The position numbers and the translations under genes are program-made. The notes beneath the pieces were generated by a model, which saw only the letters and a program-made list of their open reading frames with translations, ran no database searches and was not told the origin of the DNA. A DNA stretch of 13,866 nucleotides from Chthonomonas calidirosea. Lineage in GTDB: Bacteria; Armatimonadota; Fimbriimonadia; Fimbriimonadales; Fimbriimonadaceae. The DNA lies in NCBI GenBank assembly GCA_945859975.1, contig CAMAPH010000056.1, positions 1-13,866 on the forward strand, read 5' to 3'. Positions 1 to 13,866 of the stretch are shown here, piece by piece (position 1 is the stretch's first letter; every line of letters starts with the position of its first letter).

Positions 1-64
1 TGCCAAAAAGGCCAGTAAATTTGCTCATCCAACCTGGACGATCTTGAAGTTCCATTTCTTCCAT
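1..64 (-). CDS. 5' end of a CDS running off the left edge; probable cell division protein SepF (YlmF)
   Basis: Not in the ORF track. The minus strand reads TAG(yggS stop)-AGAGGAAATC-ATG at 64, an SD-like GAGG, then an open frame MEEMELQDRPGWMSKFTGLFG to the edge. A 'W/F-xx-K-F-xx-F-G' amphipathic N-terminus directly after yggS/ylmE fits the well-known ylmE-sepF gene order. Only 21 codons are visible. Confidence 0.55.
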   Translation of the reverse strand, partial: MEEMELQDRPGWMSKFTGLFG

Positions 65-74
65 GATTTCCTCT

Positions 75-722
75 CTAAACCCGCTCGCCAAAGAGAGCAG
101 TGCCGACCCTGATGTGACTGGCTCCTTCCTGGATTGCCACCTCAAAATCCGAACTCATCCCCATACTTTTCCAACCGCTTCCGACATTTGCACTTAGATT
201 CGCCAACGTGCGAAACCAAGGACGCATATCTTCCGGGTTGTCCACCTGGGGACCAATGGTCATAAGACCACGGATTCGAGTCCGCTTATATTGTAGGGCT
301 GAAGTACTGAATTGATCAAGGTCGCTTGGCAAAATTCCTGATTTTTGCGATTCTTCCGCGATGTTGATCTCGATCAGCCCATCGACAGTCTTTGATCCCT
401 TCTCGATTTCCTTAAGTTGACCTTCGCTGGAAAGGGAATGAATCACCGAAAAGTACTCCGCGCACTTCTTGGCCTTGTTGGATTGCAGGTGCCCAATAAA
501 GTGCCAAGTGATGTCCTTAGGCAGCGCCTCGACTTTCGGGATGGCTTCCTGAACCTTGCTCTCCCCAAAGTGCCGCAGCCCAAGATCGTAAGCGGCTTGT
601 AGCTCCGGAATCGATCGCGTCTTGCTCACCGCGATCAGGGTGACGCTCTCCGGGTCACGGCCAACGGACTGAGCCGCTTGGCACATACGCGCCTGAATCT
701 CGCGCAAACGATCTAGCATCAT
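75..722 (-). CDS. yggS: Pyridoxal phosphate homeostasis protein (YggS/PLPBP family)
   Basis: Motifs LIAVSKT (PLP lysine), FGESKVQEA, WHFIGHLQSNK, GLMTIG, SMGMSSDFEVAIQEGASHIRVGTALFG. Start moved from 752 to the ATG at 722 (or 719), 1 nt after the upp stop. Confidence 0.96.
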   Translation of the reverse strand: MMLDRLREIQARMCQAAQSVGRDPESVTLIAVSKTRSIPELQAAYDLGLRHFGESKVQEAIPKVEALPKDITWHFIGHLQSNKAKKCAEYFSVIHSLSSEGQLKEIEKGSKTVDGLIEINIAEESQKSGILPSDLDQFSTSALQYKRTRIRGLMTIGPQVDNPEDMRPWFRTLANLSANVGSGWKSMGMSSDFEVAIQEGASHIRVGTALFGERV

Positions 723-723
723 T

Positions 724-1344
724 TCAAGGCGTGGCAAACAGCCGGTCGCCAAAATCGCCTAGCCCCGGCAAGATGTACTTACGCTCATCAAGCTTTTCAT
801 CCAGCGCCGCGGAATAGATCTCCACATCCGGATGATGCTTCGTCAGCGCCTCAACCCCTTCCGGCGCCGCCACGACGCAAACCATGATCACCCGACTTGC
901 CCCGGCTTCCTTGATAAAACTAATCGCCTGACTCGCGCTGCCGCCGGTCGCCAGCATGGGATCGATGCAAAGGGCAAACTTCCCGCTGAGGTTCGGAAGC
1001 TTTTGGTAGTACCGCCGGGCAACGGCGGTCTCCTCGCATCGCTCCAAGCCAATGTAACCCACCGCAACTTCGGGGAACAGCTCGGTAAACGGCGCAAGCA
1101 TCCCCAATCCCGCGCGAAGAACCGGCACCACCGCGATCGCCTGATCCAAAACGCGAGCCTCCGTCGCTTGCATTGGTGTTTCGATCGTTTCCGTTCGCAC
1201 CCGAAGATCCCGCGTGGCTTCAATCGCCAGCAGTGTTGTGAGCTGATTCGTTGCACGGCGAAACTCCGTCGGGCGAGTGACTTTGTTGCGAAGTTCGGCT
1301 AGCAAATGGCCAGCAAGGGGGTGTTGCAACACGTGCAGCGACAT
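724..1344 (-). CDS. upp: Uracil phosphoribosyltransferase
   Basis: HPL...LR N-terminus, VPVLRAGLGM, PRPP loop DPMLATGGS, C-terminal YILPGLGDFGDRLF; 206 aa. Confidence 0.97.
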   Translation of the reverse strand: MSLHVLQHPLAGHLLAELRNKVTRPTEFRRATNQLTTLLAIEATRDLRVRTETIETPMQATEARVLDQAIAVVPVLRAGLGMLAPFTELFPEVAVGYIGLERCEETAVARRYYQKLPNLSGKFALCIDPMLATGGSASQAISFIKEAGASRVIMVCVVAAPEGVEALTKHHPDVEIYSAALDEKLDERKYILPGLGDFGDRLFATP

Positions 1345-1424
1345 GTCCCTATTCTTCCACGTTTGCCTATTTTCGGCTTTGCTTGTCGGATCGGTCGCGA
1401 ACCGGTCAAAATGGACTCCTTCCT
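1345..1424. promoter_or_regulatory. Divergent promoter region between upp and glmU
   Basis: 80-nt gap between divergent starts. On the minus strand, TGG-AAGAAT (1359-1351) lies 6 nt before the upp ATG. On the plus strand, CAAAAT at 1407-1412 precedes glmU. Both are imperfect -10-like elements. Confidence 0.45.
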
Positions 1425-2813
1425 ATGGCTAACCAAGTTGCTGGCATCATCCTCGCCGCCGGAAAAGGCACCCGCATGAAGTCGGAGATTCCGAAAGTTC
1501 TGCACGAGGTGTGCGGTGTGCCGATGGTGGAGCTCGTCGCTCGAGCCATGCGAGAAGCCGGCGTCACCAAAATTGTGGTGGTAATCGGTCACGGCGCTGA
1601 GCAAGTCCGGGCCCGACTGGGAGACGCCTACGAATACGCCGTGCAGGACCCGCCGCAGGGAACCGGCGACGCCGCGCGAGTCGGCATGACGTGCCTCGAA
1701 GACTGGGAAGGTCCGGTAATCATCTCTTCCGGAGACACTCCGCTCATGACCGGCGAAGCGCTTTCGGCCCTCGTCACCGCTCAAGCCAAGGACAATGCCA
1801 GCGCGGTGGTCGCCACCGTCCGACTCCCCGATCCATTCGGTTACGGCCGAGTTCTGTGGGATAATGGACGATTCTCGGGAATCATCGAAGAGAAAGACGC
1901 GACCCCCGAGCAGAAGAAACTCGACGAGGTCTGCGTCTCGGTCTACGCCTTCGACGCCGCCCGGCTCCGAGCGACCCTGCCCAAGCTTCAGCCCAATAAC
2001 GCGCAAGGCGAGTACTACCTAACCGACGTTCCAGGCATCATGTCTGCCGAAGGAGACGTGGTCATCACCGAACTGTACGACGACTTCTCGCTCTTCACCG
2101 GAGTCAATGACCGAGTTCAACTCGCCGGTGCCTCTTCAGTCCTTCGCAACCGTATCAACGACCGCCACATGCGAAACGGGGTCACGATGATCGACCCAAC
2201 CAGCGTCTACATCGGCCTCGACGTGGAAATCGGGAACGACACGATCGTGTTCCCAGATAGCCACTTGGAAGGAAACACCGTCATCGGATCGAACTGCGAG
2301 ATCGGTCCCAACATCCGAATCAAAGATTCTCAAGTAGGAAGCGGTTCACAAGTCCATCACAGCGTCGTCTTCGACTCCAAGGTCGCCGACATGGTGCGAA
2401 TCGGCCCATACGCCACGCTCCGAAACGGCGCCGACATCGGGCCGAAAGTCAAGCTCGGCAACTTCGTCGAGATCAAGAATTCACGCCTAGATGAGAAGGT
2501 GAGCGTAGCGCACCTGTCGTATATCGGTGACGCGACCGTAGGCGAATACACCAACATCGGAGCAGGAACAATTACCTGCAACTACGATGGCTTCGCAAAG
2601 CACCGAACCCAGATCGGCAAAGGGGCCTTCATCGGAACCAATTCCACCCTCATCGCCCCGGTCAGCATCGGTGACGCGGCGATCATCGCGGCAGGTAGCG
2701 TGATTAACAAAGATGTCCCGAGCGACGCCGGTGCGTTCGGTCGTTCAAGACAAGAAAACAAAGATGGTTGGGCCACTCGGTGGCGCGGCATTCGGCAAGG
2801 AAAAGAACAGTGA
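1425..2813 (+). CDS. glmU: Bifunctional UDP-N-acetylglucosamine pyrophosphorylase / glucosamine-1-phosphate N-acetyltransferase
   Basis: ILAAGKGTRMKS, GTGDA, GYGRV, NNAQGEYYLTD, GVNDRVQL, hexapeptide repeats, GNFVEIK, HLSYIGDA, NIGAGTITCNYDG. The ATG at 1425 (MANQVAGIILAAG) is preferred over the TTG at 1383. Confidence 0.97.
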   Translation: MANQVAGIILAAGKGTRMKSEIPKVLHEVCGVPMVELVARAMREAGVTKIVVVIGHGAEQVRARLGDAYEYAVQDPPQGTGDAARVGMTCLEDWEGPVIISSGDTPLMTGEALSALVTAQAKDNASAVVATVRLPDPFGYGRVLWDNGRFSGIIEEKDATPEQKKLDEVCVSVYAFDAARLRATLPKLQPNNAQGEYYLTDVPGIMSAEGDVVITELYDDFSLFTGVNDRVQLAGASSVLRNRINDRHMRNGVTMIDPTSVYIGLDVEIGNDTIVFPDSHLEGNTVIGSNCEIGPNIRIKDSQVGSGSQVHHSVVFDSKVADMVRIGPYATLRNGADIGPKVKLGNFVEIKNSRLDEKVSVAHLSYIGDATVGEYTNIGAGTITCNYDGFAKHRTQIGKGAFIGTNSTLIAPVSIGDAAIIAAGSVINKDVPSDAGAFGRSRQENKDGWATRWRGIRQGKEQ

Positions 2814-3781
2814 GCAACGATTACGATCTATCAAAAATGAAATTGTTCTCTGGGAATGCCCACCCAGAGCTGGCTCACAAAGTAGCCGGGAACCTAGACA
2901 TTCCCCTCGGGAACTTGATGACCGACCGTTTCGCCGACGGCGAAATCCGCATCATGATCGAGGAGTCGGCGCGTGGCAACGACATCTTCCTGATTCAGCC
3001 GACATGTGCCCCGACGAACGACAACTGCATGGAGCTTTTCATCATGCTCGATGCGTTCCGCCGTGCATCGGCCCGCAACATCACCGTCGTCATGCCGTAC
3101 TACGGCTACGCGAGACAGGATAAAAAGATCAAGCCACGCGAGCCGATCACGGCCAGACTCGTTGCCGACATCATCGAAGCTTGCGGAGCAAGCCGGGTCG
3201 TCGCAATTGACTTACATGCTGAACAGATTCAGGGCTTCTTCAACATCCCGGTAGACCACCTGTACGGATTCCCGATCCTCGGTCGCCACTTCATCGAGCT
3301 TGGTTACAAAGACCGAGACGATGTCGTCGTCGTCAGCCCAGACGTCGCTGGTGTAGGCCGAGCTTCGGCTCTGGCAAAGATGCTCAACGGTAGCTTGGTT
3401 GTCATCAACAAGCGCCGACCACGACCCAATGCGGTTGAAGTGGTCGAAATTGTCGGCGACTTCGTTGGCAAGAACTGCATCATGATCGACGACATGATCG
3501 ACACCGGCGGCAGCATCGTCAGTGGCGCGCAAGCGCTCCTCGACCGAGGCGCCAAGGACGTCATTGCTTGCTGCACCCACCCGGTCTTCAGCCGCGCAGC
3601 ATCGATCCGACTACAAGATTCGCCGCTGAGCAAGGTTGTCTGTCTCGATACGATCCCGATGACGCCTGAAAAGATGTTCCCGAAGTTGACGGTTTTGCCG
3701 AGCGCGCAGTTGCTGGCCGATGCGATTCGACGCATTCACTGTAATGAATCGGTGAGTGAGCTGTTTGGAGACTGGCGCTAG
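2810..3781 (+). CDS. prs: Ribose-phosphate pyrophosphokinase (PRPP synthetase)
   Basis: KLFSGNAHPELA, FADGEI, PYYGYARQD, DLHAEQIQGFF, VVSPD, DDMIDTGGS. The GTG at 2810 overlaps the glmU stop (GTGA); glmU-prs is a classic gene pair. Confidence 0.97.
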   Translation: MSNDYDLSKMKLFSGNAHPELAHKVAGNLDIPLGNLMTDRFADGEIRIMIEESARGNDIFLIQPTCAPTNDNCMELFIMLDAFRRASARNITVVMPYYGYARQDKKIKPREPITARLVADIIEACGASRVVAIDLHAEQIQGFFNIPVDHLYGFPILGRHFIELGYKDRDDVVVVSPDVAGVGRASALAKMLNGSLVVINKRRPRPNAVEVVEIVGDFVGKNCIMIDDMIDTGGSIVSGAQALLDRGAKDVIACCTHPVFSRAASIRLQDSPLSKVVCLDTIPMTPEKMFPKLTVLPSAQLLADAIRRIHCNESVSELFGDWR

Positions 3782-4298
3782 CCTGGAGCCGCTGGTCTGG
3801 CAGACCGCGCCCCGCGCCAGCGGAACCGGAAAGAAGGTCGTTACCGGCCTTGGAATTCTGCTTCCGTTCGTGTGGGGACTGTCGGCTCGAGAGCTCGTTT
3901 TGGGCCTCGTCGGTAGTGCGCTGGTAGCCACCACTGTCGTCCCGATGTTTTTGCCGGTAAAGTACCGGCTCGACGAGAAATCGGCTTCGGCTGGCGTGCT
4001 CCTCGGAGTTTCCAGCATGGAGTGGGAAGCGGTGAAGAAGGTGAGGGTCTTCGAAGACCGAATTCATCTTTCGCCTTTTGGGCAAGAAACCCGATTAGAC
4101 GAGACACGGGGAGTCTGGTTAAACGTCTCGGGGGATAATCGGGATGCGGTTCTCGCGTACGTGAAGGATCGAGTTCAAAAAGATGTCGGATTTTTGGGAG
4201 GAGGAGATGTCCGAGGAGGGCACGGAGCAGCTGTTGGAGAAGATCGCAACCAAAATTCGCTCGAAGAAAATGGAGGTGCCCGCGGTGATGGCGCTTGA
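3765..4298 (+). CDS. Hypothetical membrane protein: two TM helices followed by a beta-rich, bacterial PH/YcxB-like domain (module gene 1)
   Basis: Hydrophobic VVTGLGILLPFVWGL and LVLGLVGSALVATTVVPMFLP, then KYRLDE...MEWEAVKKVRVFEDRIHLSPF...RLDETRGVWL. It fills the gap between prs and the next gene. Start is uncertain (TTG 3765 or GTG 3756). The PH-like call is pattern-based. Confidence 0.75.
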   Translation: METGASLEPLVWQTAPRASGTGKKVVTGLGILLPFVWGLSARELVLGLVGSALVATTVVPMFLPVKYRLDEKSASAGVLLGVSSMEWEAVKKVRVFEDRIHLSPFGQETRLDETRGVWLNVSGDNRDAVLAYVKDRVQKDVGFLGGGDVRGGHGAAVGEDRNQNSLEENGGARGDGA

Positions 4299-4476
4299 AA
4301 TGCACAAGCCTCTCGCTGGTATTGCCGGAAGTGCGGGGGTCGTTTTTGCTCCTTTCCTCGTCCCGTTTCTTGGCTTTGACAATGTTAACGATTACACTAG
4401 GGTTCTTTCGAAACCGGAGAACATTGAACGACTGATGAAAAAACTAGAGTTGCCTCAGGAGAGTGATAAGCAATGA
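4183..4476 (+). CDS. Small conserved-looking hypothetical protein with one hydrophobic segment (module gene 2)
   Basis: 97 aa, helical, with LLEKIA..I....MEVPAVMALEMHKPL, the hydrophobic AGVVFAPFLVPFLG and ENIERLMKKLE. Its stop overlaps the next ATG (ATGA). An alternative start at ATG 4207 has a strong GGAGG SD. Confidence 0.8.
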   Translation: MSDFWEEEMSEEGTEQLLEKIATKIRSKKMEVPAVMALEMHKPLAGIAGSAGVVFAPFLVPFLGFDNVNDYTRVLSKPENIERLMKKLELPQESDKQ

Positions 4477-5417
4477 TGCCGCTTTCTCAGGTCTACATCG
4501 GCGATCAGTACCGTGACACTGGCTGGTTTGGCGTCTTCATGACGCTGCTTGTGGCCGCCTTTGTCCTGCTGAACATTCGCCGTGCCCGTGGCGGGAAAGA
4601 TCTGTACATTCGACGAATCGCTGGCCTCAACGCCATTGACGAAGCTATTGGACGCGCCACCGAAATGGGCAAGCCCGTTTTGATGGTTCCTGGCCTTAGC
4701 GACACCATCAACGCGATTGCGGTTCAGGCCGTTAACATTTTCGCCTACGTCAGCCGAATTGCCGCCCGCTTCGCAAACCCGATCCTCCTGTGCTGCTACA
4801 ACGCTGCGGTTTACACCTACGCCCAGGAAACGATTCGGGACGTGTACCAGTCGGAAGGCGTCGCTGATCGCTACGATCCAGACTCCGTTCGATTCGTCTC
4901 CGACCGTCAGTTCGCTTTTGCCGCTGGCGTCTCCGGTTTGATTCTCCGCGAACAAACTGCCGCGACGTTCTTCCTCGGTGAGTTTTATGCCGAGTCGCTG
5001 ATCTTTGCCGAAACCGCAAACTCGATCGGCGCAATTCAGGTGGCAAGCTCCACGGAGACCACGCAGACTCCGTTCTTCATTGCCGCTTGCGATTACGTTC
5101 TGATTGGCGACGAGTTCTACGCTGCCTCGGCCTACCTCACGCGACAGCCGGTCCTGGTCGGATCGCTCGTTGGCCAAGACTGGAGCAAGCTGATGATCAT
5201 TCTCATGATCATCCTCGGAACCCTTCTCAACACCGTCCAGATCCAAGGCAAAACCACTTGGGAGCGAACGAAGGGCGTTTGGAGCCAGATTCCGGAACGC
5301 AGCGTAAAGCAATCCGACACCTTCATGTCACAACTCTTCAAGCCACAGCTTGAGAAGGTTAAGGTTGAGCGGCCGATCGATCCAAACTACGTCCCAGAAA
5401 AGGGGGCCGGCGAATGA
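4473..5417 (+). CDS. DUF6754-like membrane-anchored protein (module gene 3)
   Basis: N-terminal TM, then IRRIAGLNAIDEAIGRATEMGKPV, FAFAAGVSG, GEFYAESLIFAE, QTPFFIAACDYVLIGDEFYAASAYL, GSLVGQD and a C-terminal TM. I recognise this motif set as DUF6754 from memory, not from a search. ATGA overlaps at both ends. Confidence 0.8.
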   Translation: MMPLSQVYIGDQYRDTGWFGVFMTLLVAAFVLLNIRRARGGKDLYIRRIAGLNAIDEAIGRATEMGKPVLMVPGLSDTINAIAVQAVNIFAYVSRIAARFANPILLCCYNAAVYTYAQETIRDVYQSEGVADRYDPDSVRFVSDRQFAFAAGVSGLILREQTAATFFLGEFYAESLIFAETANSIGAIQVASSTETTQTPFFIAACDYVLIGDEFYAASAYLTRQPVLVGSLVGQDWSKLMIILMIILGTLLNTVQIQGKTTWERTKGVWSQIPERSVKQSDTFMSQLFKPQLEKVKVERPIDPNYVPEKGAGE

Positions 5418-6328
5418 TTCCTCTACTTCAAGCTCAGGCGCCAGCGACCAGTTTCTGGTCTGAGGCATTCAACTCTTCGGAGCTTTGGACGAAGCTCATC
5501 ATCACGCTCGTTGTTGGGCTTGTGGTGATGGTTGGACTTCTCTACGCCCCGATTCGAGCGCGTAAACCAATCATTGCGTTCTTCACGTTCATCTCCGGTG
5601 CTTACTGGGTCCTTCTTTACCTTTGGCCTAAGCCGATTGATCGCCAGCCCGGTGAAATGCCGCTGAATACGGTTGAGACCGTATCGTTCTGGCTCGCCGA
5701 TTCGAACAACGTCGTCGTCAGCTTCACGCAAATCCTCACCGGATTCCTCCTCGGCCTTGGCATCTTCTCGCTCTTGAAGATCCACCTCACCAAGATCACG
5801 AAGGGTCACAAAGACGCCTTCTTTAGCATCGTGCTGCTGGTCAGCATGGGCCTGATGATCTGGTTCGGTTATGCCGACTGGTTCGACCGACTCGGTGAAC
5901 GAGGCGCGATGCTCGACAATCGCGACAACTGGGGCTTCACCCAGTACGGCCGCGACTTCCTCTTCGAAGGTCTGCTCCAGCAGATGGACGCGGCGATGTT
6001 CTCTGTCATCGCGTTCTACATTCTCAGTGCCGCCTACCGAGCCTTCCGCGTTCGGTCGGTTGAAGCGACCATCTTGCTCTCTGCCGCCTTGCTCGTGCTT
6101 CTTTCCCTCATGGGTGCGGTCTCGTTCGTTTGGGACGAGAACGTGAAGTCAATCGCGAACGGCAATCCGTTTATTCTCAACTTCCAGCTCACCGAAGTTG
6201 CTCAGTGGATTCGGAACACGTTCCAAACCTCGAGCATCCGCGGCATCCAGTTCGGAGTTGGTTTGGGTGCCCTCGCCATGGGCTTGAGACTTTGGCTGAG
6301 CCTTGAAAAGCCGGGAAGTGGTTCGTAA
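5414..6328 (+). CDS. Polytopic membrane protein of unknown function, about 7 TM (module gene 4)
   Basis: About seven hydrophobic segments. Motif-like stretches AAMFSVIAFYILSAAYRAFRVRSVEATILL and RGIQFGVGLGALAMGLRLWLSLEK. ATGA overlap upstream and TAATG overlap downstream. Confidence 0.85.
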   Translation: MIPLLQAQAPATSFWSEAFNSSELWTKLIITLVVGLVVMVGLLYAPIRARKPIIAFFTFISGAYWVLLYLWPKPIDRQPGEMPLNTVETVSFWLADSNNVVVSFTQILTGFLLGLGIFSLLKIHLTKITKGHKDAFFSIVLLVSMGLMIWFGYADWFDRLGERGAMLDNRDNWGFTQYGRDFLFEGLLQQMDAAMFSVIAFYILSAAYRAFRVRSVEATILLSAALLVLLSLMGAVSFVWDENVKSIANGNPFILNFQLTEVAQWIRNTFQTSSIRGIQFGVGLGALAMGLRLWLSLEKPGSGS

Positions 6329-7275
6329 TGAAAGGAAATCTTGGAGAAAAGCTTCAGTCGCTACCGAAGCCAATCTTGTATCTGATCTTGATCTTGGCGA
6401 CTTCGATTCCTCTGTTCTTCCCAACCGAAGTTCCGAACGAACCGGTGGAATCGACAAAGGACTTCTACGCCACTCTCATGGCCTTGCCAGAGGGAAGCAA
6501 GGTCCTGCTGATGTCCGACTGGACCGGATCGACTCGCGGCGAAAGCAAGGGTGCTTTCCGCAGCATCTTTAAGATCCTGATCCGTCGAAAGGCAAAGGTC
6601 GCGATCTACTCGGCCGCCGACCCGCAGGCTCCTCGAGTTGCTCAAGACGCGATCAACGAGCTGAACATGGAGCGGAAGCGTAAAAACCTTCCGACCTTTG
6701 ATCGCTGGAACGACTGGGTCAACATTGGTTACTTCCCGAACGCGGAAGCCGCCATCAACGGTATTGCGAACGACCTCAAGGGTGCGTTTGGTGGACGAAA
6801 AGACTTTCCACCCAACTCGCCTCCACGAGACGTGTTCCAATCCCCGGTTCTCCAGGGCGTAACCAAAGTTGAAGACTTCCCGCTGATGCTCGTCATCACC
6901 GCGTCGAAGACCTCCAACTTTGCGGTTGAGCGAGTCTCTGGCCGAACTCCGCTGGCCTTTGCGGTCACTGGCGTCATGGTTCCAGAAACCCAGGTCTTCT
7001 ATCAATCGAAGCAGATTGTCGGCTACTGCGGCGGTCTGAAGGGTGTTTATGACCTTGAGCAGCTGATGGAGTCGGGCGTCAACTTCCCAGATAAAGCCAC
7101 CGGCAAAATCAAGTCGGACAAGCTTGGGACCATCGAAGGCTTTCCGGACCCGGACAACAAGGGGCAGGGAACTCGTTACTACCCGACCCTCCACTACGCT
7201 CTGGCCCTGATGATCATCATGATCATCCTCGGAAACGTCGGAATGTTCTTAGCAAAGCGAGGTGACAAGTCGTGA
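6328..7275 (+). CDS. Protein with N- and C-terminal TM anchors and a large, probably extracytoplasmic alpha/beta domain (module gene 5)
   Basis: TM ILYLILILATSIPLFF after a basic N-terminus, about 255 aa of soluble sequence (KVLLMSDW, DWVNIGYFP, QIVGYCGGLKGVYDLEQL), then TM YALALMIIMIILGNVGMFL followed by KRGDKS. TAATG and GTGA overlaps. Confidence 0.85.
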   Translation: MKGNLGEKLQSLPKPILYLILILATSIPLFFPTEVPNEPVESTKDFYATLMALPEGSKVLLMSDWTGSTRGESKGAFRSIFKILIRRKAKVAIYSAADPQAPRVAQDAINELNMERKRKNLPTFDRWNDWVNIGYFPNAEAAINGIANDLKGAFGGRKDFPPNSPPRDVFQSPVLQGVTKVEDFPLMLVITASKTSNFAVERVSGRTPLAFAVTGVMVPETQVFYQSKQIVGYCGGLKGVYDLEQLMESGVNFPDKATGKIKSDKLGTIEGFPDPDNKGQGTRYYPTLHYALALMIIMIILGNVGMFLAKRGDKS

Positions 7276-8021
7276 ACTATGATCTCTTGCGCATCACCGC
7301 TGGCGTCATCGCGACCATCGGTCTGTACAGCGTTCTCTGGAAGGAGAACAAGTTCTATCGGTTCTTCGAGCACGTCTTCCTAGGCCTTGCCGCCGGTTGG
7401 ACGATGGTCGCACTCTGGACCGAAACCCTAAAGGCGAACTGGTGGGACAAGATGGTCGGCACCCCGGCCGAAACCGGCTCGGTGGCGACCAACGGAATGT
7501 ACGCGTACGCGTTGTTGATCCCATTTGGCCTCATGGGCTACTTCGTGTTTAGCAAAAAGCACAACTGGATCAGCCGAATTCCAATTGGGATCATTCTTGG
7601 TCTCTGGTCTGGACAGCAGGTTCAGGTTTGGTGGAATACCTACGGCCCGCAGATCGATGCGACGCTGAAGCCGATTCTGCCAACGACCTGGGATTCCCTG
7701 ATCGTTCCTTCCACAAACGGCCTCACGCCAGAGCAGTTGTCGCAGGTCCAGAGCCAGATCTACTTCTCGCAAGCGGTTAACAACTTCCTGTTCACCATCA
7801 CCGTGGTGAGCGTGTTGAGCTACTTCCTATTTAGCTTTGAAGTCAAAAACAAGGCGGTCAAGGGCATCAACACGATGGGGCGCTACTTGCTCATGATCGG
7901 CTTCGGCGCGATCTTCGGCAGTACGGTCATGATGCGCTTCACGCTTCTGATCGACCGAATGCACTTCATTTGGATCGAGTGGCTACGAGACGGCGTCTTC
8001 CCGTTCCTTTCGGGTCGATAA
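7272..8021 (+). CDS. Polytopic membrane protein of unknown function, about 6 TM (module gene 6)
   Basis: GTG start overlapping the previous stop. YSVLWKENKFYRFFEHVFLGLAAG, LSYFLFS, GRYLLMIGFGAIFGSTVMMRFTLLIDR; about six hydrophobic segments. Confidence 0.85.
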   Translation: MNYDLLRITAGVIATIGLYSVLWKENKFYRFFEHVFLGLAAGWTMVALWTETLKANWWDKMVGTPAETGSVATNGMYAYALLIPFGLMGYFVFSKKHNWISRIPIGIILGLWSGQQVQVWWNTYGPQIDATLKPILPTTWDSLIVPSTNGLTPEQLSQVQSQIYFSQAVNNFLFTITVVSVLSYFLFSFEVKNKAVKGINTMGRYLLMIGFGAIFGSTVMMRFTLLIDRMHFIWIEWLRDGVFPFLSGR

Positions 8022-8025
8022 GTAA

Positions 8026-8784
8026 ATGGAGCAAACCATCCGTGCGGTGGTTCTGCGCAGAAGAGAACAGGGTGAGTCGGATCGTCGACTCACCCTGCTT
8101 TCCGTTGAGCTTGGCAAAGTTGACGCGATGGCCCGGGGGGCGAAGAAGGCGACCTCGAGATTGGCCGCCGTTTCTGAACCGCTGACCGTCGGTCGCTTCA
8201 CCGTTGCCGTATCCAAGCGCAATCGGTACATCACGCAAGTGCAGCCGGAATCGGCATTTCCGAAGCTGCGTACCGACTACCATCGCCTGACCTTTGCGGT
8301 GTCATTGACTGAGCTTTATGCCGGCTTGCTGCCGTGGGAACACCCGGCGCCTGACGAGTTTCAGCTCTTGTTCCAGAGTCTCCAGCACCTTAACGACTCC
8401 GAGAACCCGTTGACGGTGTACGTCTGGGCCGCGTGCCGGCTGCTGGCGATTTCTGGATTTCAGCCGAACTTTGAGGCCTGCGAAGTCTGGAGTCTCCCCG
8501 ACGGATCGCGTCGATGTTGGCTGTCTCCGAGTCAAGGAGGTTCGATATCCTCTGATTCCTTCCTGCCCGCTGACCGGTTTCAGGCGAGCTACGAAGCGGT
8601 GATCGCAGTTGATCGGATGTTCGAACTCGAGACCCCGCCGAAGAACCTGAGGCCGGCGATTGAATGTCTGGAGCTACTGTTCCCGTTCTGGAAGAACATC
8701 GTCGACGCTCCGATCCCAGCAACCGAGTTGGCTCGAAGTGAAGCAAAAGGGACCGAAGGTTTGATTCTTCCCAAACGAGTGTAG
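8026..8784 (+). CDS. recO: DNA repair protein RecO
   Basis: N-terminal OB-fold pattern AVVLRRREQGESDRRLTLLSVELGKVDAMARGAKKATSRLAAVSEPL, helical middle region, LLAISGFQPNF; 252 aa. Confidence 0.92.
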   Translation: MEQTIRAVVLRRREQGESDRRLTLLSVELGKVDAMARGAKKATSRLAAVSEPLTVGRFTVAVSKRNRYITQVQPESAFPKLRTDYHRLTFAVSLTELYAGLLPWEHPAPDEFQLLFQSLQHLNDSENPLTVYVWAACRLLAISGFQPNFEACEVWSLPDGSRRCWLSPSQGGSISSDSFLPADRFQASYEAVIAVDRMFELETPPKNLRPAIECLELLFPFWKNIVDAPIPATELARSEAKGTEGLILPKRV

Positions 8785-8794
8785 AATCGAAGGT

Positions 8795-10399
8795 ATGAAT
8801 CGTGGCTTCGCACTTTTGGCGGTTGGATTTGCCTTCGGCCTCGCGCTCTCTGGATGCAACCAGGGCGGATTTTCGGAGAAGACAAACGACAAGAAAGTCA
8901 ACGTTTTCCGCTATCCGATTGTCACCTCGCCGACCAGCCTAGACCCCGCGATGGTGCAAGACGGCGACACGATTGATGCCATCCAGCAGGTCTTCGAAGG
9001 CCTCGTAGGATTCAGTCCGGACAATAAGGTCGTCCCGATCCTTGCCGAGAAGTGGGAAGTTCAAGACAACGGAACAAGCTATGTCTTCTCCCTCAAAAAG
9101 GACCTAAAGTTCAGCTCCGGTCGCGAAGTGAAGGCGGCGGACTTTAAGAAGTGCTTCGAGCGTGCCTGCGATCCTGGGTTCAACAGCCCAACCGCCGCGA
9201 CTTACCTCAGCGACATTGTCGGCGTGAAAGAGCGTCTGGCTGGAAAGGCCGACGAAGTTAAGGGCTACGAAGTCGTTGACGACTACACGATCAAAATCAA
9301 GATCGACAAGCCGCGCCCGTACTTCCTCGGAAAACTGACTTATCCGGTCACCTTCGTTTACGACCTCGAAAAGCTTCCGGACGCTAAGAAAGAGATGGCA
9401 ACCGTGGACCAGATGGTCGGAACCGGTCCATACACCTTCGAGCAGTTCGTTCCCGAGCAGATTCTGAAGCTTAAGGCCAACTCCGCTTACCACGGCGGTG
9501 CTCCAAAGATTGACGGCATCGAACGACCTGTTGCCAAAGACGCGGCCACGCGACTTCAGCTTTTCAAGAACAAAGAAGTCGACCTCGTTCAACTTGAGCG
9601 ACAGGACATCAAGGCGATTGAAGAGGATGCCGAGCTGAAGAGCATGCTCAAGTTCTTCAACCGCCCGTCGGTTTGGTACATCGGCCTGAACGTCGATATG
9701 TACGAGCCGCTGAAGAAGCGCGAAATGCGCCAAGCCATCGCTCGCGCCATCGACACCGACAACATCGTCAAGAACGTTCTTGGCGGCGTTAACGAAAAGG
9801 CGAACGGCATTGTCCCGCCGGGCGTTTTCGGTCACCGCGAGAATCCTAAGCTCCTCACCTATGATCCGAAAGCCGCTCGAGACCTCATGGCCAAGGCCGG
9901 ATATCCCGAAGGGACGGGACTTCCTGAATTCACGATCACCTTCCGCGAAGCTCGCCCCGACATTCAGCTCGTCGCTGCACAGGTGGCTTCCGACCTGAAG
10001 AAGAACCTGAACATGAACGTGAAGCTCCAGACGATGGAGTGGCGAAGCTACCTTGAGAAGCATAACAAGTCGGCCATTCCGTTCCTCCACATGCGCTGGG
10101 CCGCGGACTACCTGGACGCAGAAAACTTCCTCAGCACTCTTCTTGCCAGCTATGGGCCAGAGAACAAGCTGAACTACAAGAACCCGGCCTACGACGCCCT
10201 CACCGCCAAAGCGGATGTATCGTTGGACGAGGCTGAGCGCCAGAAACTGTACGGGGAAGCGGAAGATTTGGTGCTTGACGATGCGCCTTTCATCCCGATT
10301 TACTTCCAGCGCGATGCAGAGTTGATCCGTCCACGCGTAGAAGGGCTGCGAGAGTCGGTGTTCGGCCATTTGCCGCATACCACCGTCACGCTCAAGTAA
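8795..10399 (+). CDS. Peptide/nickel ABC transporter substrate-binding lipoprotein (SBP family 5, OppA/DppA-like)
   Basis: Lipoprotein signal with lipobox LSG-C21. PTSLDPA, VFEGLV, P.LAEKWEV, YVFSLKKDLKFSSG, VGTGPY, REMRQAIARAID, W.ADYLDAENFL, DAPFIPIY. Confidence 0.93.
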   Translation: MNRGFALLAVGFAFGLALSGCNQGGFSEKTNDKKVNVFRYPIVTSPTSLDPAMVQDGDTIDAIQQVFEGLVGFSPDNKVVPILAEKWEVQDNGTSYVFSLKKDLKFSSGREVKAADFKKCFERACDPGFNSPTAATYLSDIVGVKERLAGKADEVKGYEVVDDYTIKIKIDKPRPYFLGKLTYPVTFVYDLEKLPDAKKEMATVDQMVGTGPYTFEQFVPEQILKLKANSAYHGGAPKIDGIERPVAKDAATRLQLFKNKEVDLVQLERQDIKAIEEDAELKSMLKFFNRPSVWYIGLNVDMYEPLKKREMRQAIARAIDTDNIVKNVLGGVNEKANGIVPPGVFGHRENPKLLTYDPKAARDLMAKAGYPEGTGLPEFTITFREARPDIQLVAAQVASDLKKNLNMNVKLQTMEWRSYLEKHNKSAIPFLHMRWAADYLDAENFLSTLLASYGPENKLNYKNPAYDALTAKADVSLDEAERQKLYGEAEDLVLDDAPFIPIYFQRDAELIRPRVEGLRESVFGHLPHTTVTLK

Positions 10400-10411
10400 C
10401 GACTTCAACGG

Positions 10412-11620
10412 ATGGATCGGACGACCGAGACTGAATTGCTACGTGGGGATTTCCGGCGACCGCCGGAAGGCCCCACTTTTGCCAATTCTCGGGTGTACAG
10501 CCTTTCAAATCTTCCCGCTTGGCGCAGCAATGGCGGACCGACCCGTAGCCATCCGGCTCGCAGCTTTCCCTTCACGATGGAGTGCGCCGCCCCTGCGGGT
10601 GCTCGCCGAATCCACGTCATCGGGATCTTTTGCCAATACGCCGGTAGCGGGCAAGAAGCTCCCGGCACGATGGGTGCGACGTTGCACGGAATGCTGGGCG
10701 AGAACCTCGTGTTCCGCCAGGACCTAGTTCTCGGTCAGCACTACCGCGACGCTGAGGGAGACCCGATCCTCCAGATCAACGGCGATGGGTCGAGCCTCGA
10801 AACGGTCGGTCAAGTTGAGATAGAAGGGAAGGAGCTGCAAGTGGACGCCTTGACCATTGACGTTCCCGCCGGTCTCACGTTCGATACCATCCGCATTCGA
10901 GATCTCGGAAGCCCGGCTTCCTTCACGATTTTCGATATCTTCTTCGATGCGCCGGTACCGCATGGCTGCCCATTCCATCGCGCCGGTGGCGGGATTCCCC
11001 TTAGCGAAGTCGCCGTCGCCCTGAGAATGGGCGATCGTGTGAAGTTCCAGCGTGCATTCGATCAACTCAAGGCGGCCCTCGGTAAATCGAGCAATCTTGA
11101 CGAAGCCCGAGGCCAGTTGCTCACCTTCTTCGCCCTGGTAACGTCCGCCTCCCTAGAGGCCGGTGGGGGCCGCGAGATGCACTGGCGCCTCTTGGATCTT
11201 GCTCGAGAACTAGAACGCAAGAACAAAGCATCCGAGCTCGTTGAGCTTGCCCAAACTTACATCTTTGAAGTCGCCGCGCCGATGCTTGGCGAAGCCGCCG
11301 GCCCAAGCGCCTACCTCATCGATCGCGCACTTGCTTACGTCGAGCGAAACTTTGCGCGCAACCTGACCGACGCCATTGTCGCAGAAGAGCTTGGACTCAG
11401 CACGAGTCATTTCCGCTTCCTATTCCGACAAGCAACTGGCCAGCCGTTCCACAAATATCTCATCGGCCTGAGGTTAGAAAAGGCTCGCCGACTTTTGGTT
11501 GAGCAAAAGATCACCGTCAGCCAAGCCGCTCGCTCCGTGGGTTTCAGCGGCCTCGCCCACTTCAGCCGCGCTTTCCAGCAACGTTTTGAGATCAGCCCAT
11601 CCACCGCGAGGCGAAGCTGA
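10412..11620 (+). CDS. AraC/XylS-family transcriptional regulator with a long atypical N-terminal region
   Basis: C-terminal double HTH IDRALAYVERNF...VAEELGLSTSHFRFLFRQATGQPFHKYLIGLRLEKARRLL...VSQAARSVGFSGLAHFSRAFQQRFEISPS; 402 aa. Confidence 0.92.
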   Translation: MDRTTETELLRGDFRRPPEGPTFANSRVYSLSNLPAWRSNGGPTRSHPARSFPFTMECAAPAGARRIHVIGIFCQYAGSGQEAPGTMGATLHGMLGENLVFRQDLVLGQHYRDAEGDPILQINGDGSSLETVGQVEIEGKELQVDALTIDVPAGLTFDTIRIRDLGSPASFTIFDIFFDAPVPHGCPFHRAGGGIPLSEVAVALRMGDRVKFQRAFDQLKAALGKSSNLDEARGQLLTFFALVTSASLEAGGGREMHWRLLDLARELERKNKASELVELAQTYIFEVAAPMLGEAAGPSAYLIDRALAYVERNFARNLTDAIVAEELGLSTSHFRFLFRQATGQPFHKYLIGLRLEKARRLLVEQKITVSQAARSVGFSGLAHFSRAFQQRFEISPSTARRS

Positions 11621-12361
11621 GTGATCGAGATCAAGAACCTCTCGCATCAATTCGGCCCGCGCCTGATCCTCGATAACATCAACCTGAGCGTTGCTGTCGG
11701 CAAAGTCGCGACCATCATGGGCAGCAGCGGTGGTGGAAAAACGACCCTCCTCAAGTGCGTCTCGCGGCTCCTCACTCCCACTAAAGGTGAAATCACCGTA
11801 GACGGCCTGAACGCCATTGAAGACCCGGAAGGTGCCTGCCGGAAAATGGGCATGGTCTTCCAATCGGCCGCCCTCTTCGACTTTATGACCGTGACCGAAA
11901 ATGTCCTCTTCGGTGTTCGTCGTCACAAAAGTGAAAAGGAGAAATCTGAAAAGGACCTTGTCGCCGAGGTTCTGGAAGATGTCGGTCTTACCCCCGATGC
12001 TGGCAAACTTATGCCGAGCGAACTCAGCGGCGGAATGCGCAAACGCGTGGGCATCGCCCGCGCCATCGCCCTTCGCCCAAAGGTCATGCTCTACGATGAG
12101 CCCACGACCGGGCTAGACCCCGTCACGACCTACGTCATCGACGAACTCATGGTCCGCCTAGCCCGTACGCAAGGCATCACCACCCTCATCGTGAGCCACG
12201 ACGTTAGCTCCGTCCTCCGCGTCAGTGACCAAATCGCCTTCCTCACCGGCGGAAAGCTCGTGTTCGATGGATCACCCGCAGATTTCGAGACCAGCACCCA
12301 GCCCGAAATTCAGGAGATAATCCAGAAGTCCCGCGCCACCGAGTTTGTGCTCACCCACTGA
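11621..12361 (+). CDS. ABC transporter ATP-binding protein, MlaF/Mkl/Ttg2A-like
   Basis: Walker A GSSGGGKTT, Q-loop GMVFQSAALFD, signature PSELSGGMRKRVGIARAI, Walker B/D-loop LYDEPTTGLDP, H-loop VSHD. The ELSGGMRKRV and YDEPTTGLDP wording is typical of the MlaF subfamily. The GTG start abuts the AraC stop. Confidence 0.9.
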   Translation: MIEIKNLSHQFGPRLILDNINLSVAVGKVATIMGSSGGGKTTLLKCVSRLLTPTKGEITVDGLNAIEDPEGACRKMGMVFQSAALFDFMTVTENVLFGVRRHKSEKEKSEKDLVAEVLEDVGLTPDAGKLMPSELSGGMRKRVGIARAIALRPKVMLYDEPTTGLDPVTTYVIDELMVRLARTQGITTLIVSHDVSSVLRVSDQIAFLTGGKLVFDGSPADFETSTQPEIQEIIQKSRATEFVLTH

Positions 12362-12383
12362 ACATTAACCAGAATCGCGCGTT
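12359..12383 (+). promoter_or_regulatory. Putative ECF sigma factor promoter (TGAAC-N16-CGTT)
   Basis: TGAAC at 12359-12363, exactly 16 nt, then CGTT at 12380-12383, ending 32 nt before the ATG at 12416. This matches the general ECF consensus of -35 AAC and -10 CGT. Confidence 0.55.
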
Positions 12384-12415
12384 TTCCTCATTAACCGAAC
12401 TACGGTGAAACAAAT

Positions 12416-12856
12416 ATGAACAAGATTCTCATCTCCGCCCTTGCTGCCGTTGCAGTTTTCGCCGTTGCTACTACCACTCTCGCCCAGGACGCTGGTCCAA
12501 AGCAGGGCCCAGGTAAGGGACAACAGGGCCGAGGCGCCCAGGCCGGACGAGGCAAGTGGATGCAGGACGTGCTCAAGCAGCTCAACCTGACCGAAGACCA
12601 GAAGAAGAAACTCGCTGACCTTCAGAAAGGCAATGCCGAAAAAATGAAGAAGATGCGAGAAGAAATGAAGGGCAACCCAGGCGCAGGTCGCGAAAAGTTC
12701 ATGGCCATGCGAAAGGAGAACGAGGATGCCATGAAGAAGATCCTCAGCAAAGACCAGTGGGCCAAGTACGAGAAGCTTCGAAAGGAAGCCATGGACAAGG
12801 CTCGAAAGGAAGGCGGCGGTAAGCGCGGCGGCGGCAACATCCCGCCAGCGTTCTAA
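12416..12856 (+). CDS. Secreted helical protein, Spy/CpxP (LTxxQ motif)-like
   Basis: Sec signal MNKILISALAAVAVFAVATTTLA|QD, Gly/Gln-rich linker, LNLTEDQKKKL and ILSKDQWAKY (two LTxxQ-type motifs), Met/Lys/Glu-rich helices. Confidence 0.8.
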   Translation: MNKILISALAAVAVFAVATTTLAQDAGPKQGPGKGQQGRGAQAGRGKWMQDVLKQLNLTEDQKKKLADLQKGNAEKMKKMREEMKGNPGAGREKFMAMRKENEDAMKKILSKDQWAKYEKLRKEAMDKARKEGGGKRGGGNIPPAF

Positions 12857-13395
12857 AGGTTAAGTACTAACCCAAACTCGGGGCTCTCATCGGGGTCGTC
12901 GCAAACGCGATCTCCCACGATGCGGGCCCCGAGGTCTATATAAAGGGCATGAGCCGCGCCAAACCGCTGATCGGACCATATCTCCATCGCCGTCCTACCG
13001 TTGTCTTTGGCCCATTGAACCGCCGTAAGGCACAGCTTCCGCGCGATCCCTTGCCGTCGCGCCCTCGGGTGCACGTATAACCGCTCCATCGAGCAATCCG
13101 TCCCCAGCACCCGCGTCAATCCTGCTTCCGGCTGCTCGGAGATCAGTGGGTACTGGTCCAGAGCGAGTGTCCCCTGGATCAAGCCGTCCGTTTCGAACAC
13201 CCAAAAGGGCAGTCCGGCGTCCAGATAAACCTCTTGCAGGTGATACAAGTCGTAGTGGTAGTCATCTGGATCCCACGTGAAGCTGTACTCCTCATACACC
13301 GTCTTGATGACATCAATGACTCCCGGTTGATCTTCTGCCGTCGCCATCCGAATGTTAGAAAGGGCGGAATTGGGTGAGGTCTCGGGAGTAGACAT
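12853..13395 (-). CDS. GNAT-family N-acetyltransferase
   Basis: IRMATAED N-terminal strand, acetyl-CoA motif A RLYVHPRARRQGIARKL, AHALY..LG; 180 aa. The stop overlaps the convergent gene's stop by 4 nt. Confidence 0.9.
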   Translation of the reverse strand: MSTPETSPNSALSNIRMATAEDQPGVIDVIKTVYEEYSFTWDPDDYHYDLYHLQEVYLDAGLPFWVFETDGLIQGTLALDQYPLISEQPEAGLTRVLGTDCSMERLYVHPRARRQGIARKLCLTAVQWAKDNGRTAMEIWSDQRFGAAHALYIDLGARIVGDRVCDDPDESPEFGLVLNL

Positions 13396-13451
13396 GAGCC
13401 CATAAGGTTATCGCATCTAGGCGATACGACTCTCTGCGCACCCTCCAGATT

Positions 13452-13460
13452 TGCTACAGT
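13452..13460 (+). promoter_or_regulatory. Extended -10 element TGCTACAGT ahead of a probably leaderless gene
   Basis: TGn-TAnnnT at 13452-13460, then 5 nt, then the GTG at 13466. There is no SD sequence, and an in-frame TGA at 13460-13462 prevents an earlier start. Confidence 0.55.
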
Positions 13461-13465
13461 GATTC

Positions 13466-13866
13466 GTGCCTTTGGCGACCCTCCGACCCGTCCGCCTTTC
13501 TGCCGACGACCGCGCGGCGATCATCGACGAGATCGAAGAGAATTCCGCTTCATGTCGTCGGTACTACGTTCTAACCGTGTTGGCGTCCGTCATTGCCGCC
13601 GTCGGTTTGCTTACGAACAGCCCAGCCACCATCATCGGAGCCATGATCATCGAGCCTTCCATGGGGCCGATCTTGGGCTTGTCTCTTGGTCTCGTCCGGT
13701 TTCGAGCGGCGATGAAGCGGGTCGCGATAATCGCGCTGATCTACGGAAACTTGATCGCCTTCGTGCTTGGTTTCGTGATCGGGAGCCTCCCGCTAAATTA
13801 CGGCGTAACCGCAGAAATGGCGAGCCGCGCCGCACCGACCTTCCTAGACATGGTCGTGGCCTTCGC
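13466..13866 (+). CDS. DUF389 (TIGR00341-type) membrane protein, partial, runs off the right edge
   Basis: Not in the ORF track. My translation from GTG 13466 is open to the edge: MPLATLRPVRLSADDRAAIIDEIEENSASCRRYYVLTVLASVIAAVGLLTNSPATIIGAMIIEPSMGPILGLSLGL...EMASRAAPTFLDMVVAF. The IA..GL..NS.A.IIGAM.I.P.MGPI and E..SR..P...D motifs are characteristic of DUF389. Confidence 0.88.
   Translation, partial: MPLATLRPVRLSADDRAAIIDEIEENSASCRRYYVLTVLASVIAAVGLLTNSPATIIGAMIIEPSMGPILGLSLGLVRFRAAMKRVAIIALIYGNLIAFVLGFVIGSLPLNYGVTAEMASRAAPTFLDMVVAF

Follow-up and report, generated by a model that had tools for sequence, protein, structure and literature searches.

A conserved DUF6754 membrane gene cassette of Armatimonadota and its co-distribution with an unlinked actin/Hsp70-fold ATPase

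Introduction

Type VII ATP-binding cassette (ABC) systems that act by mechanotransmission, such as MacB, FtsEX and LolCDE, combine a cytoplasmic ATPase, membrane helices and an outer working domain without an obvious pore. Energy-coupling factor (ECF) transporters are assembled from ABC ATPases, a T component and single S components, and a single ATPase module in the genome energises one or more cassettes located at other loci. The GlmL/MutL proteins have the ASKHA (actin/Hsp70) ATPase fold. In the diol and glycerol dehydratase reactivases, which serve a B12 enzyme, an ASKHA ATPase with an inserted swivelling domain is combined with a small subunit of Rossmann-like fold, and the targets of reactivases are themselves Rossmann-like. 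Here we describe a membrane gene module that recalls each of these groups in part, is far from every characterised kind of membrane machine, and whose function we infer. The module comprises six consecutive open reading frames (ORFs) between prs and recO in a 13,866-nucleotide stretch of DNA from Chthonomonas calidirosea (assembly GCA_945859975.1, contig CAMAPH010000056.1, positions 1 to 13,866; hereafter the window), the third of which encodes a member of the DUF6754 family.

3756-4298, plus strand: ORF1, 180 residues, GTG start
4183-4476, plus strand: ORF2, 97 residues
4473-5417, plus strand: ORF3, 314 residues, DUF6754
5414-6328, plus strand: ORF4, 304 residues
6328-7275, plus strand: ORF5, 315 residues
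7272-8021, plus strand: ORF6, 249 residues

An earlier note on this DNA, prepared from the sequence without database searches, had proposed that the six genes encode one membrane machine, perhaps a transporter, an exporter or an envelope-biogenesis complex. The conserved functional unit is upheld by synteny, but not as six self-sufficient genes. Its composition is a four-gene core (ORF3-6) and a two-gene set (ORF1-2), which co-occur with an ASKHA ATPase and a second protein, P372, encoded elsewhere in the genome. Very probably these eight proteins constitute one functional system.

The locus has the ORF3-4-5-6 order of DUF6754 cassettes elsewhere and a full-length ORF3, but most members of the family carry an exported N-terminal domain that is missing from the window's copy. 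The likeness to GlmL/MutL lies in a strong PF13941 match with intact ASKHA motifs, and that to the reactivases in the pairing of an ASKHA ATPase and a swivelling domain with an apparent action on a Rossmann-like domain. Unlike those systems, this one has no mutase partner, its apparent partner is a membrane protein and the swivelling domain resides on a separate protein; nor does the ATPase gene share the position between or beside glmS and glmE that marks GlmL as a glutamate mutase accessory protein. The resemblance to MacB, FtsEX and LolCDE is one of analogy only. The present system may work alike, but it has an ATPase of the ASKHA fold, four different membrane subunits and no sequence or profile similarity to them. 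With ECF transporters it shares the arrangement of one ATPase module per genome and one to several cassettes encoded elsewhere, but no homology. An assignment to the ABC or ABC-2/GldFG type finds no corresponding ATPase or permease family among the conserved genes. Literature searches, which covered few subscription journals, returned nothing on DUF6754, on PF13941 or on GlmL as an ASKHA protein; among the papers listed for an Armatimonadota membrane complex with an actin-like ATPase none was relevant, and for GlmL with glutamate mutase only work on mesaconase surfaced.

Conservation of the gene cassette

The comparison comprised 100 loci, namely 20 from 19 Armatimonadota genomes of different families and the best 80 of at least 615 stretches that encode a DUF6754 relative in a collection with one genome per species. 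The ORF3-4-5-6 order is kept in 18 of the 20 Armatimonadota loci; of the two exceptions, one ends at a contig end and one, a second copy, shows ORF3 and ORF4 only. In that diverged copy (L032, G028:C2), tblastn and hidden Markov model searches detected these two genes alone, and ORF5 and ORF6 may have been lost or have diverged beyond detection. The complete run is present in 73 of the best 80 species-representative loci, and the remaining seven consist of five that end at contig ends and two with ORF3 alone and about 1.5 kb of flank. According to the record titles, these 80 loci derive from Armatimonadota, WOR-3, Stahlbacteria, Poribacteria, Ignavibacteria, Edwardsbacteria, Fermentibacteraceae, Latescibacterota, Eisenbacteria, Vulcanimicrobiota, Aegiribacteria and others. 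ORF3-6 thus co-occur in conserved order across phyla and not singly and unlinked.

Homologues of ORF4, ORF5 and ORF6 were detected in 96, 94 and 91 of the 100 loci, respectively. When all flanking ORFs were clustered, those widely shared were ORF2 (a homologue in 61 loci), ORF1 (55), P372 (12) and the ATPase (11); the next real cluster, antisense shadow ORFs aside, covered 15 loci. ORF2, or ORF1 together with ORF2, lies upstream in most of the 20 Armatimonadota loci. The present genome has one copy of the cassette, to which ORF1-2 are directly joined. Two or three cassettes occur in tandem at L085, L087 and L103, and at L026:8006-9771 and L068:976-2620 the ORF3 gene alone is present in two tandem copies before a single ORF4-5-6 set.

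DUF6754 was found in 40 of 41 close relatives; across the phylum, 175 of the 201 Armatimonadota genomes sampled have it. A search of 14 well-known control genomes gave no match to it. A library of 1.84 billion proteins contains 2,511 DUF6754 representatives at 50% identity, 1,118 of them at E <= 1e-30. The DUF6754 system is nearly universal in Armatimonadota and common in many uncultured phyla.

The plus-strand genes of the window form a co-directional array, and the module has the following neighbours in it.

2768-3781, plus strand: prs, 5' neighbour of the six-ORF module
8026-8784, plus strand: recO, 3' neighbour of the module

The six consecutive plus-strand ORFs between these genes, and the stop-start junctions that the earlier note had described, were confirmed on re-reading the sequence (ATGA at 4473, ATGA at 5414, TAATG at 6326-6330 and GTGA at 7272). 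Its ORF1 start at 3765 is an in-frame TTG and possible; the ORF is called here from the GTG at 3756, and both positions lie inside the 3' end of prs. The reported ORF1/ORF2 overlap of 116 nucleotides holds with the ORF2 ATG at 4183 and becomes 92 nucleotides if the ATG at 4207 is used. The overlap is real, since both frames are conserved in alignments of relatives. Packing is equally tight around the module, as prs overlaps ORF1, recO begins 4 nucleotides past ORF6 and the next gene 10 nucleotides past recO; with gaps of at most 10 nucleotides throughout, the junctions alone say little. Such packing is what would be expected if six unrelated membrane proteins were merely co-transcribed in a long co-directional array, for throughout the window the genes, those for housekeeping too, run in one direction and are tightly packed. 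This explanation has almost no probability in our judgement, being contradicted by synteny: the gene order is held across phyla while the flanks change, recO being near the module in 13 of the 100 loci and prs and recO flanking it only in close relatives. It is conserved synteny, not the junctions, that raises the finding above chance.

Location and co-distribution of the ATPase and P372

At one locus (L014), two genes lie between ORF2 and ORF3. They encode a 598-residue ATPase (Pfam 'MutL', PF13941, E 4e-126) and the 372-residue P372, which has weak barrel-sandwich matches. The order ORF1-ORF2-ATPase-P372-ORF3-6 was seen in 11 of the 100 loci, permuted in one, and some of these are from other phyla. 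The ATPase gene is directly 3' of ORF2 in all three non-Armatimonadota genomes tested, and in Armatimonadota ORF2 adjoins ORF3, so that ORF2 links both modules by neighbourhood. The earlier note had left open which ATPase travels with these genes; it is an actin/Hsp70-fold ASKHA ATPase of the GlmL/MutL family, not an ABC ATPase. Both proteins have homologues in the present genome (G000).

G000:C2:104349-106211, minus strand: ATPase, PF13941 E 1.4e-129, 53% identical to that of L014
G000:C1:56623-57747, plus strand: P372, 47% identical to that of L014

The neighbours of this ATPase gene are an ORF with a ribosomal L10 domain and STN-domain ORFs; the latter include L114:8292-9401 and L114:9551-10462 on contig 2 of G000, which lie just past the ATPase on the opposite strand and have weak STN/secretin-N0 matches.

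In the same 201 Armatimonadota genomes the ATPase was found in 175, as many as have DUF6754, and P372 in 171. Family f8 (e.g. G043, G058 and G085) has none of the three (0 of 18 genomes for each), and most f8 genomes are more than 90% complete; G046, G049, G156 and G176 are likewise without all three families. The f8 family offers a natural comparison group for what replaces the system. The ATPase and P372 genes are adjacent in at least 16 genomes (e.g. G044, G073, G099, G135, G181 and G189) and far apart in Fimbriimonadaceae; in G014, which is assembled as a single contig, the three loci are at about 0.95, 1.31 and 2.07 Mb. This split layout, with three distant loci of the same phylogenetic distribution, constitutes a clean natural test of belonging together. 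Five further cassette genomes (one WOR-3, two Poribacteria and two Armatimonadota) were inspected, and each has exactly one ATPase homologue, of 58-77% identity, at a distant locus.

Fold and topology of the membrane subunits

ORF3 is a genuine DUF6754 protein (Pfam PF20539), as the earlier note had supposed, with an E-value of 3.3e-93 and 312 bits against a cut-off of 27 over profile positions 13-253 of 257. Family-averaged hydropathy places one helix at each end. The AlphaFold2 model, built with 21 sequences, has a mean predicted local distance difference test score (pLDDT) of 82 and consists of an N-terminal membrane helix, a six-stranded Rossmann-like α/β domain (approximately residues 45-225) and a long C-terminal membrane helix. 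A Foldseek comparison of this model with solved structures gave nothing at E <= 0.001, and VIA-align returned only generic Rossmann folds, many of them tied at Z 9-10.7. The mean number of Lys and Arg residues around helix 1 is 4.2 after it versus 0.5 before it, which places the DUF6754 domain in the cytoplasm. Many invariant charged residues are present in this domain, and no His or Cys is found among the invariant alignment columns.

Most of the best 150 DUF6754 representatives have exported N-terminal extensions of 100-1000 residues. ORF3 is without an exported N-terminal domain, as are about 15 of these 150, which also begin with the DUF6754 domain. Among 38 long members, picked from the best 150 mainly by length, the extensions contain PQQ_2/BamB-like propellers in seven, fn3 domains in two and an Ig-like domain in one; the rest have no Pfam family. 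PQQ_2 propellers were noted on the exported side of the long metagenomic DUF6754 proteins P0147, P0157, P0159, P0164, P0169, P0180 and P0207.

The remaining ORFs were described by the same hydropathy analysis, which yields about 19 hydrophobic segments over the six proteins, distributed as the earlier note had counted them. ORF4 is polytopic, with approximately seven hydrophobic segments and the conserved motif FSLLAFFIASAAYRAFRxRSxEAT; its N-terminal ~65 residues are missing from the forms of about 210-226 residues found in other phyla and at four sampled Armatimonadota loci. ORF6 is also polytopic, with four to six hydrophobic segments and the conserved motifs YFFFSxEHKG and FGAxFGxTVMARxSLLIGR. 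ORF5 has a membrane helix at each end and an extracytoplasmic domain of about 250 residues between them. Its C-terminal tail is rich in Lys and Arg (mean 3.5) and positive residues precede helix 1, a pattern that orients the domain outward. The ESM Atlas neighbours of ORF5 are all unnamed, and Chloroflexota forms have N-terminal zinc ribbons, which fit a cytoplasmic N-terminus. Profile comparison with hhalign detected no paralogy between ORF3 and ORF5 (probability 2%) and no relation between ORF4 and ORF6 (0.6%).

ORF1 has a membrane hairpin of two helices, and the cytoplasmic domain that comes after it may, judged by profile matches, be PH-like: bPH_6 was matched in 4 of 28 family members, with a best E-value of 0.0074, below the cut-off, and the window's own ORF1 had no match. 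ORF2 has an acidic N-terminal helix, a conserved hydrophobic hairpin with the motif PAxLFLEMHKP and a C-terminal helix. From their neighbourhoods, ORF1-2 appear to be a two-gene adaptor that accompanies the four-gene core in Armatimonadota.

The variable outer domains and the conserved inner domain of DUF6754 relatives raise the question of a transmembrane receptor, in which the outer domains would sense and the DUF6754 domain would recruit the ATPase as output. This variable-outside, conserved-inside pattern and the cytoplasmic zinc ribbons of the Chloroflexota ORF5 are in keeping with such a role, but none of the subunits or conserved neighbours has a histidine kinase, GGDEF, helix-turn-helix (HTH) or serine/threonine kinase domain, a receptor does not readily account for two conserved polytopic subunits, and strong constraint persists in the Armatimonadota form even though the outer domain has been lost. 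A receptor is therefore quite improbable.

Neither Pfam nor NCBIfam has a family for ORF1, ORF2, ORF4, ORF5 or ORF6, and NCBIfam has none for ORF3 either. A Pfam scan of relatives (28 of ORF1, 23 of ORF4 and 20 of ORF6) gave scattered noise and no consistent family. Profile searches of the PDB yielded no match for ORF3 and ORF6 and chance-level matches only for ORF4 and ORF5 (E >= 0.12, the best for ORF5 being 0.12). The earlier note had recognised no ABC permease, major facilitator superfamily, Sec/Tat or respiratory motifs, and this stands: no ABC, ABC-2, major facilitator superfamily, Sec, Tat or respiratory family was matched by Pfam and NCBIfam in the six ORFs or in 20-28 relatives each of ORF1, ORF4 and ORF6, and the module matches no characterised complex. 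A diverged known system of the ABC-2/GldFG-like, MacB/FtsEX-like, Mla/Lpt-like or respiratory kind could have been missed by profiles, and GldG-type auxiliary proteins do recall the layout of ORF5, with a helix at each end and a large outer domain. The window also has an ABC ATPase gene (11621-12361), but it is not among the conserved neighbours of the cassette at the 100 loci, and the gene that does travel with the cassette encodes an ASKHA ATPase. Considering also that the PDB profile searches found nothing meaningful, this explanation is very unlikely.

Fold of the ATPase and P372

The ATPase of this genome has 620 residues, about 150 more than are covered by the 450-position Pfam model, to which it scores 433 bits against a cut-off of 27. 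The phosphate-1 (D12-K19), phosphate-2 (D307-D314) and adenosine (G446-G449) motifs of ASKHA proteins are invariant in 12 ATPase sequences that are 53-59% identical across phyla, and from these motifs the protein looks catalytically active. Identity is 56-82% within the phylum and 58-60% to the WOR-3 and Poribacteria homologues. A value of nearly 60% across phyla points to a basic cellular task.

The P372 model (pLDDT 84) is composed of three parts. Residues 51-123 form a barrel-sandwich that matches the N-terminal barrels of RnfC and NqrA (Z 7.0-7.1). Residues 152-296 form a swivelling β/β/α domain that superposes on phosphotransferase system (PTS) enzyme I, a protein with the phosphohistidine domain of enzymes that use phosphoenolpyruvate (Z 9.3, root-mean-square deviation 2.6, 107 residues aligned), and on rifampin phosphotransferase (Z 9.2). 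The C-terminus is a KOW-like barrel (Z ~8). No histidine is invariant in 12 P372 sequences, which makes a phospho-relay of the PTS type unlikely. Searches of PDB chains with single ATPase and P372 sequences found nothing meaningful, and the PADLOC anti-phage models recognised no family in any of the eight proteins.

The family of the ATPase and the fold of P372 bear on a further possibility, that of a membrane enzyme served by a reactivase of its own. In that case a cofactor would sit in the DUF6754 domain, the ATPase and P372 would prise this domain open to exchange damaged cofactor, and the membrane subunits would form a redox or ion-coupled enzyme rather than a transporter. The ATPase does belong to the glutamate mutase accessory protein family (PF13941), the DUF6754 domain is Rossmann-like, as are the subunits on which reactivases act, and it has many invariant charged residues. 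P372 contributes the swivelling domain, and the glycerol dehydratase reactivase 1nbw_A is among its Foldseek matches, although at rank 10 and weak (E 4.6e-3, TM-score 0.21). Yet the invariant His or Cys that could bind a cofactor is missing from DUF6754, and no heme, Fe-S or flavin family occurs in any subunit. The genome, which is 95.8% complete, has no glutamate mutase E subunit (PF06368), and the two B12-binding domains found sit in other proteins, the one scanned being a CarH-like regulator. We consider the reactivase explanation unlikely.

The idea of the ATPase as a mutase chaperone was discarded. A helper of glutamate mutase fails in a genome in which that enzyme was not found, and the B12-binding gene 4 kb from P372 encodes a CarH/LitR-like regulator with an HTH and two B12-binding domains (G000:C1:61670-62623, minus strand, equivalent to L115:13671-14624). 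This regulator is probably unrelated to the system, and its position is of note because B12 enzymes are the usual association of the ATPase family.

The actin fold of the ATPase could also be read as that of a cytoskeletal protein, which would polymerise and be tied by the cassettes through the membrane to variable exported domains for adhesion, gliding or surface organisation. Its level of conservation is typical of cytoskeletal or chaperone ASKHA proteins, some genomes have several cassettes but one ATPase, and the exported N-termini of DUF6754 relatives, with the propellers, fn3 and Ig-like domains counted above, are binding scaffolds. We know of no polymerising member of the hydantoinase/GlmL branch, however, and the window's ORF3 has no exported domain at all. 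Since MreB itself is encoded twice in this genome, the ATPase does not stand in for it. On balance a cytoskeletal anchor is improbable.

Prediction of the ORF3-ORF2-ATPase complex

Residues 40-235 of ORF3 were co-folded with ORF2 and the ATPase, the last being the scored partner. Three runs gave scores of 0.38, 0.53 and 0.52 (median 0.52) and three controls all gave 0.00; contacts agreed between runs to at least 53%, and the pLDDT of the partner was 78 or more. In the third control only the ORF3 domain was replaced and ORF2 was kept, which indicates that the scored interface depends on the DUF6754 domain. The same control (0.00) means that the co-fold gives no support to binding of the ATPase by ORF2, which is not evidence against such binding. 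In the calibration, 116 of 157 solved complexes and 2 of 215 mismatched pairs attained the mark, and passes at 0.60 or below comprised only 18 of the 157 solved complexes but both of the mismatched pairs. This single binding test is thus weak by the calibration, from which it also differs in using its own alignments and three chains. The models lend weak support to docking of the ATPase on the cytoplasmic DUF6754 domain, and they make ORF3 the likely docking site.

Proposed mechanism

The gene set, its conservation, its co-distribution and the folds are observed, whereas physical assembly, the coupling and, above all, any substrate and direction of movement are inferred. ORF3-6 would constitute an inner-membrane core of two polytopic subunits, one cytoplasmic Rossmann-like DUF6754 subunit and one subunit with an extracytoplasmic domain, and ORF1-2 would be small membrane-anchored adaptors of the motor module. 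The motor itself would be the GlmL/MutL-type ASKHA ATPase together with P372, and the two would dock on the cytoplasmic DUF6754 domain. Movement driven by ATP would then pass through the two membrane helices of ORF3 and reach both polytopic subunits, ORF4 and ORF6, as well as the outward-facing domain of ORF5; in relatives it would extend to the exported domain of ORF3 itself. The outcome would be either a substrate moved across the membrane or mechanical work on the outer face, by analogy to MacB/FtsEX-type systems with a different ATPase.

The strength of this proposal differs among its parts. That the six ORFs supply the membrane portion of a conserved system of eight proteins, with an ASKHA motor that acts as outlined, is in our view evenly balanced. 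ATP-driven transport or mechanotransmission as the action of the system is quite possible, if not quite probable. Only tentatively do we suggest a new class of primary transporter or mechanotransmitter powered by an actin/Hsp70-fold ATPase and not by an ABC, P-type or rotary one. Should the ATPase indeed drive the membrane core, ATP would be coupled to membrane work in a new way, and the GlmL/MutL branch of the actin-fold superfamily would gain its first non-B12 role.

Several points weigh against a motor-driven membrane machine, besides the weak binding test. To our knowledge there is no precedent for an ASKHA ATPase that drives transport. Co-distribution is imperfect: in G042 and G121 the ATPase and P372 were matched but DUF6754 was not, and in G082, G100 and G124 P372 is the one family of the three without a match. 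These mismatches are mostly in fragmented assemblies. The genomes are related and hence not independent of one another; the counts therefore exaggerate the support and are to be read as a pattern, not a statistic. The DUF6754 fold matches only generic Rossmann folds and therefore provides no functional hint, and no substrate-related gene that travels with the system was found among the clustered flanks of the 100 loci. ORF4, ORF5 and ORF6 are described from sequence alone, and hence no channel or binding site is in view. The eight-protein system as a whole is known here from genes and predicted models, not from an assay, a knockout or a solved structure.

In one Armatimonadota genome the end of the ORF6 homologue lies within an overlap with an NlpC/P60 peptidase gene (L019:4917-5654, minus strand), after which comes a two-domain ABC ATPase. 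This is a lineage-specific add-on that might hint at cell-wall work.

Expression and gene array of the window

The names that public sources give to the closest homologues, which are at most 81% identical, point to Fimbriimonadaceae or Fimbriimonas, and near-identical DNA is present in lake-water metagenomes. Metatranscriptome contigs from four lake libraries, 95-99% alike, cover parts of ORF2-6 and span the ORF2/3, ORF3/4, ORF4/5 and ORF5/6 junctions; ORF1 and recO are without cover. These contigs, from which neither a single transcript nor its level can be read and which may include DNA carry-over, hint that the module is expressed in close relatives. Given the long co-directional array, the housekeeping genes and the membrane module may share transcripts. 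The array extends from 1383 to 12361 and comprises glmU, prs, the six ORFs, recO, an SBP_bac_5 solute-binding protein, an AraC-type regulator and the ABC ATPase mentioned above. Located 3' of the ABC ATPase gene, at 12416-12856, is a small ORF with a weak match, below the cut-off, to LTXXQ, the family of Spy/CpxP-like periplasmic chaperones (E 3.4e-4).

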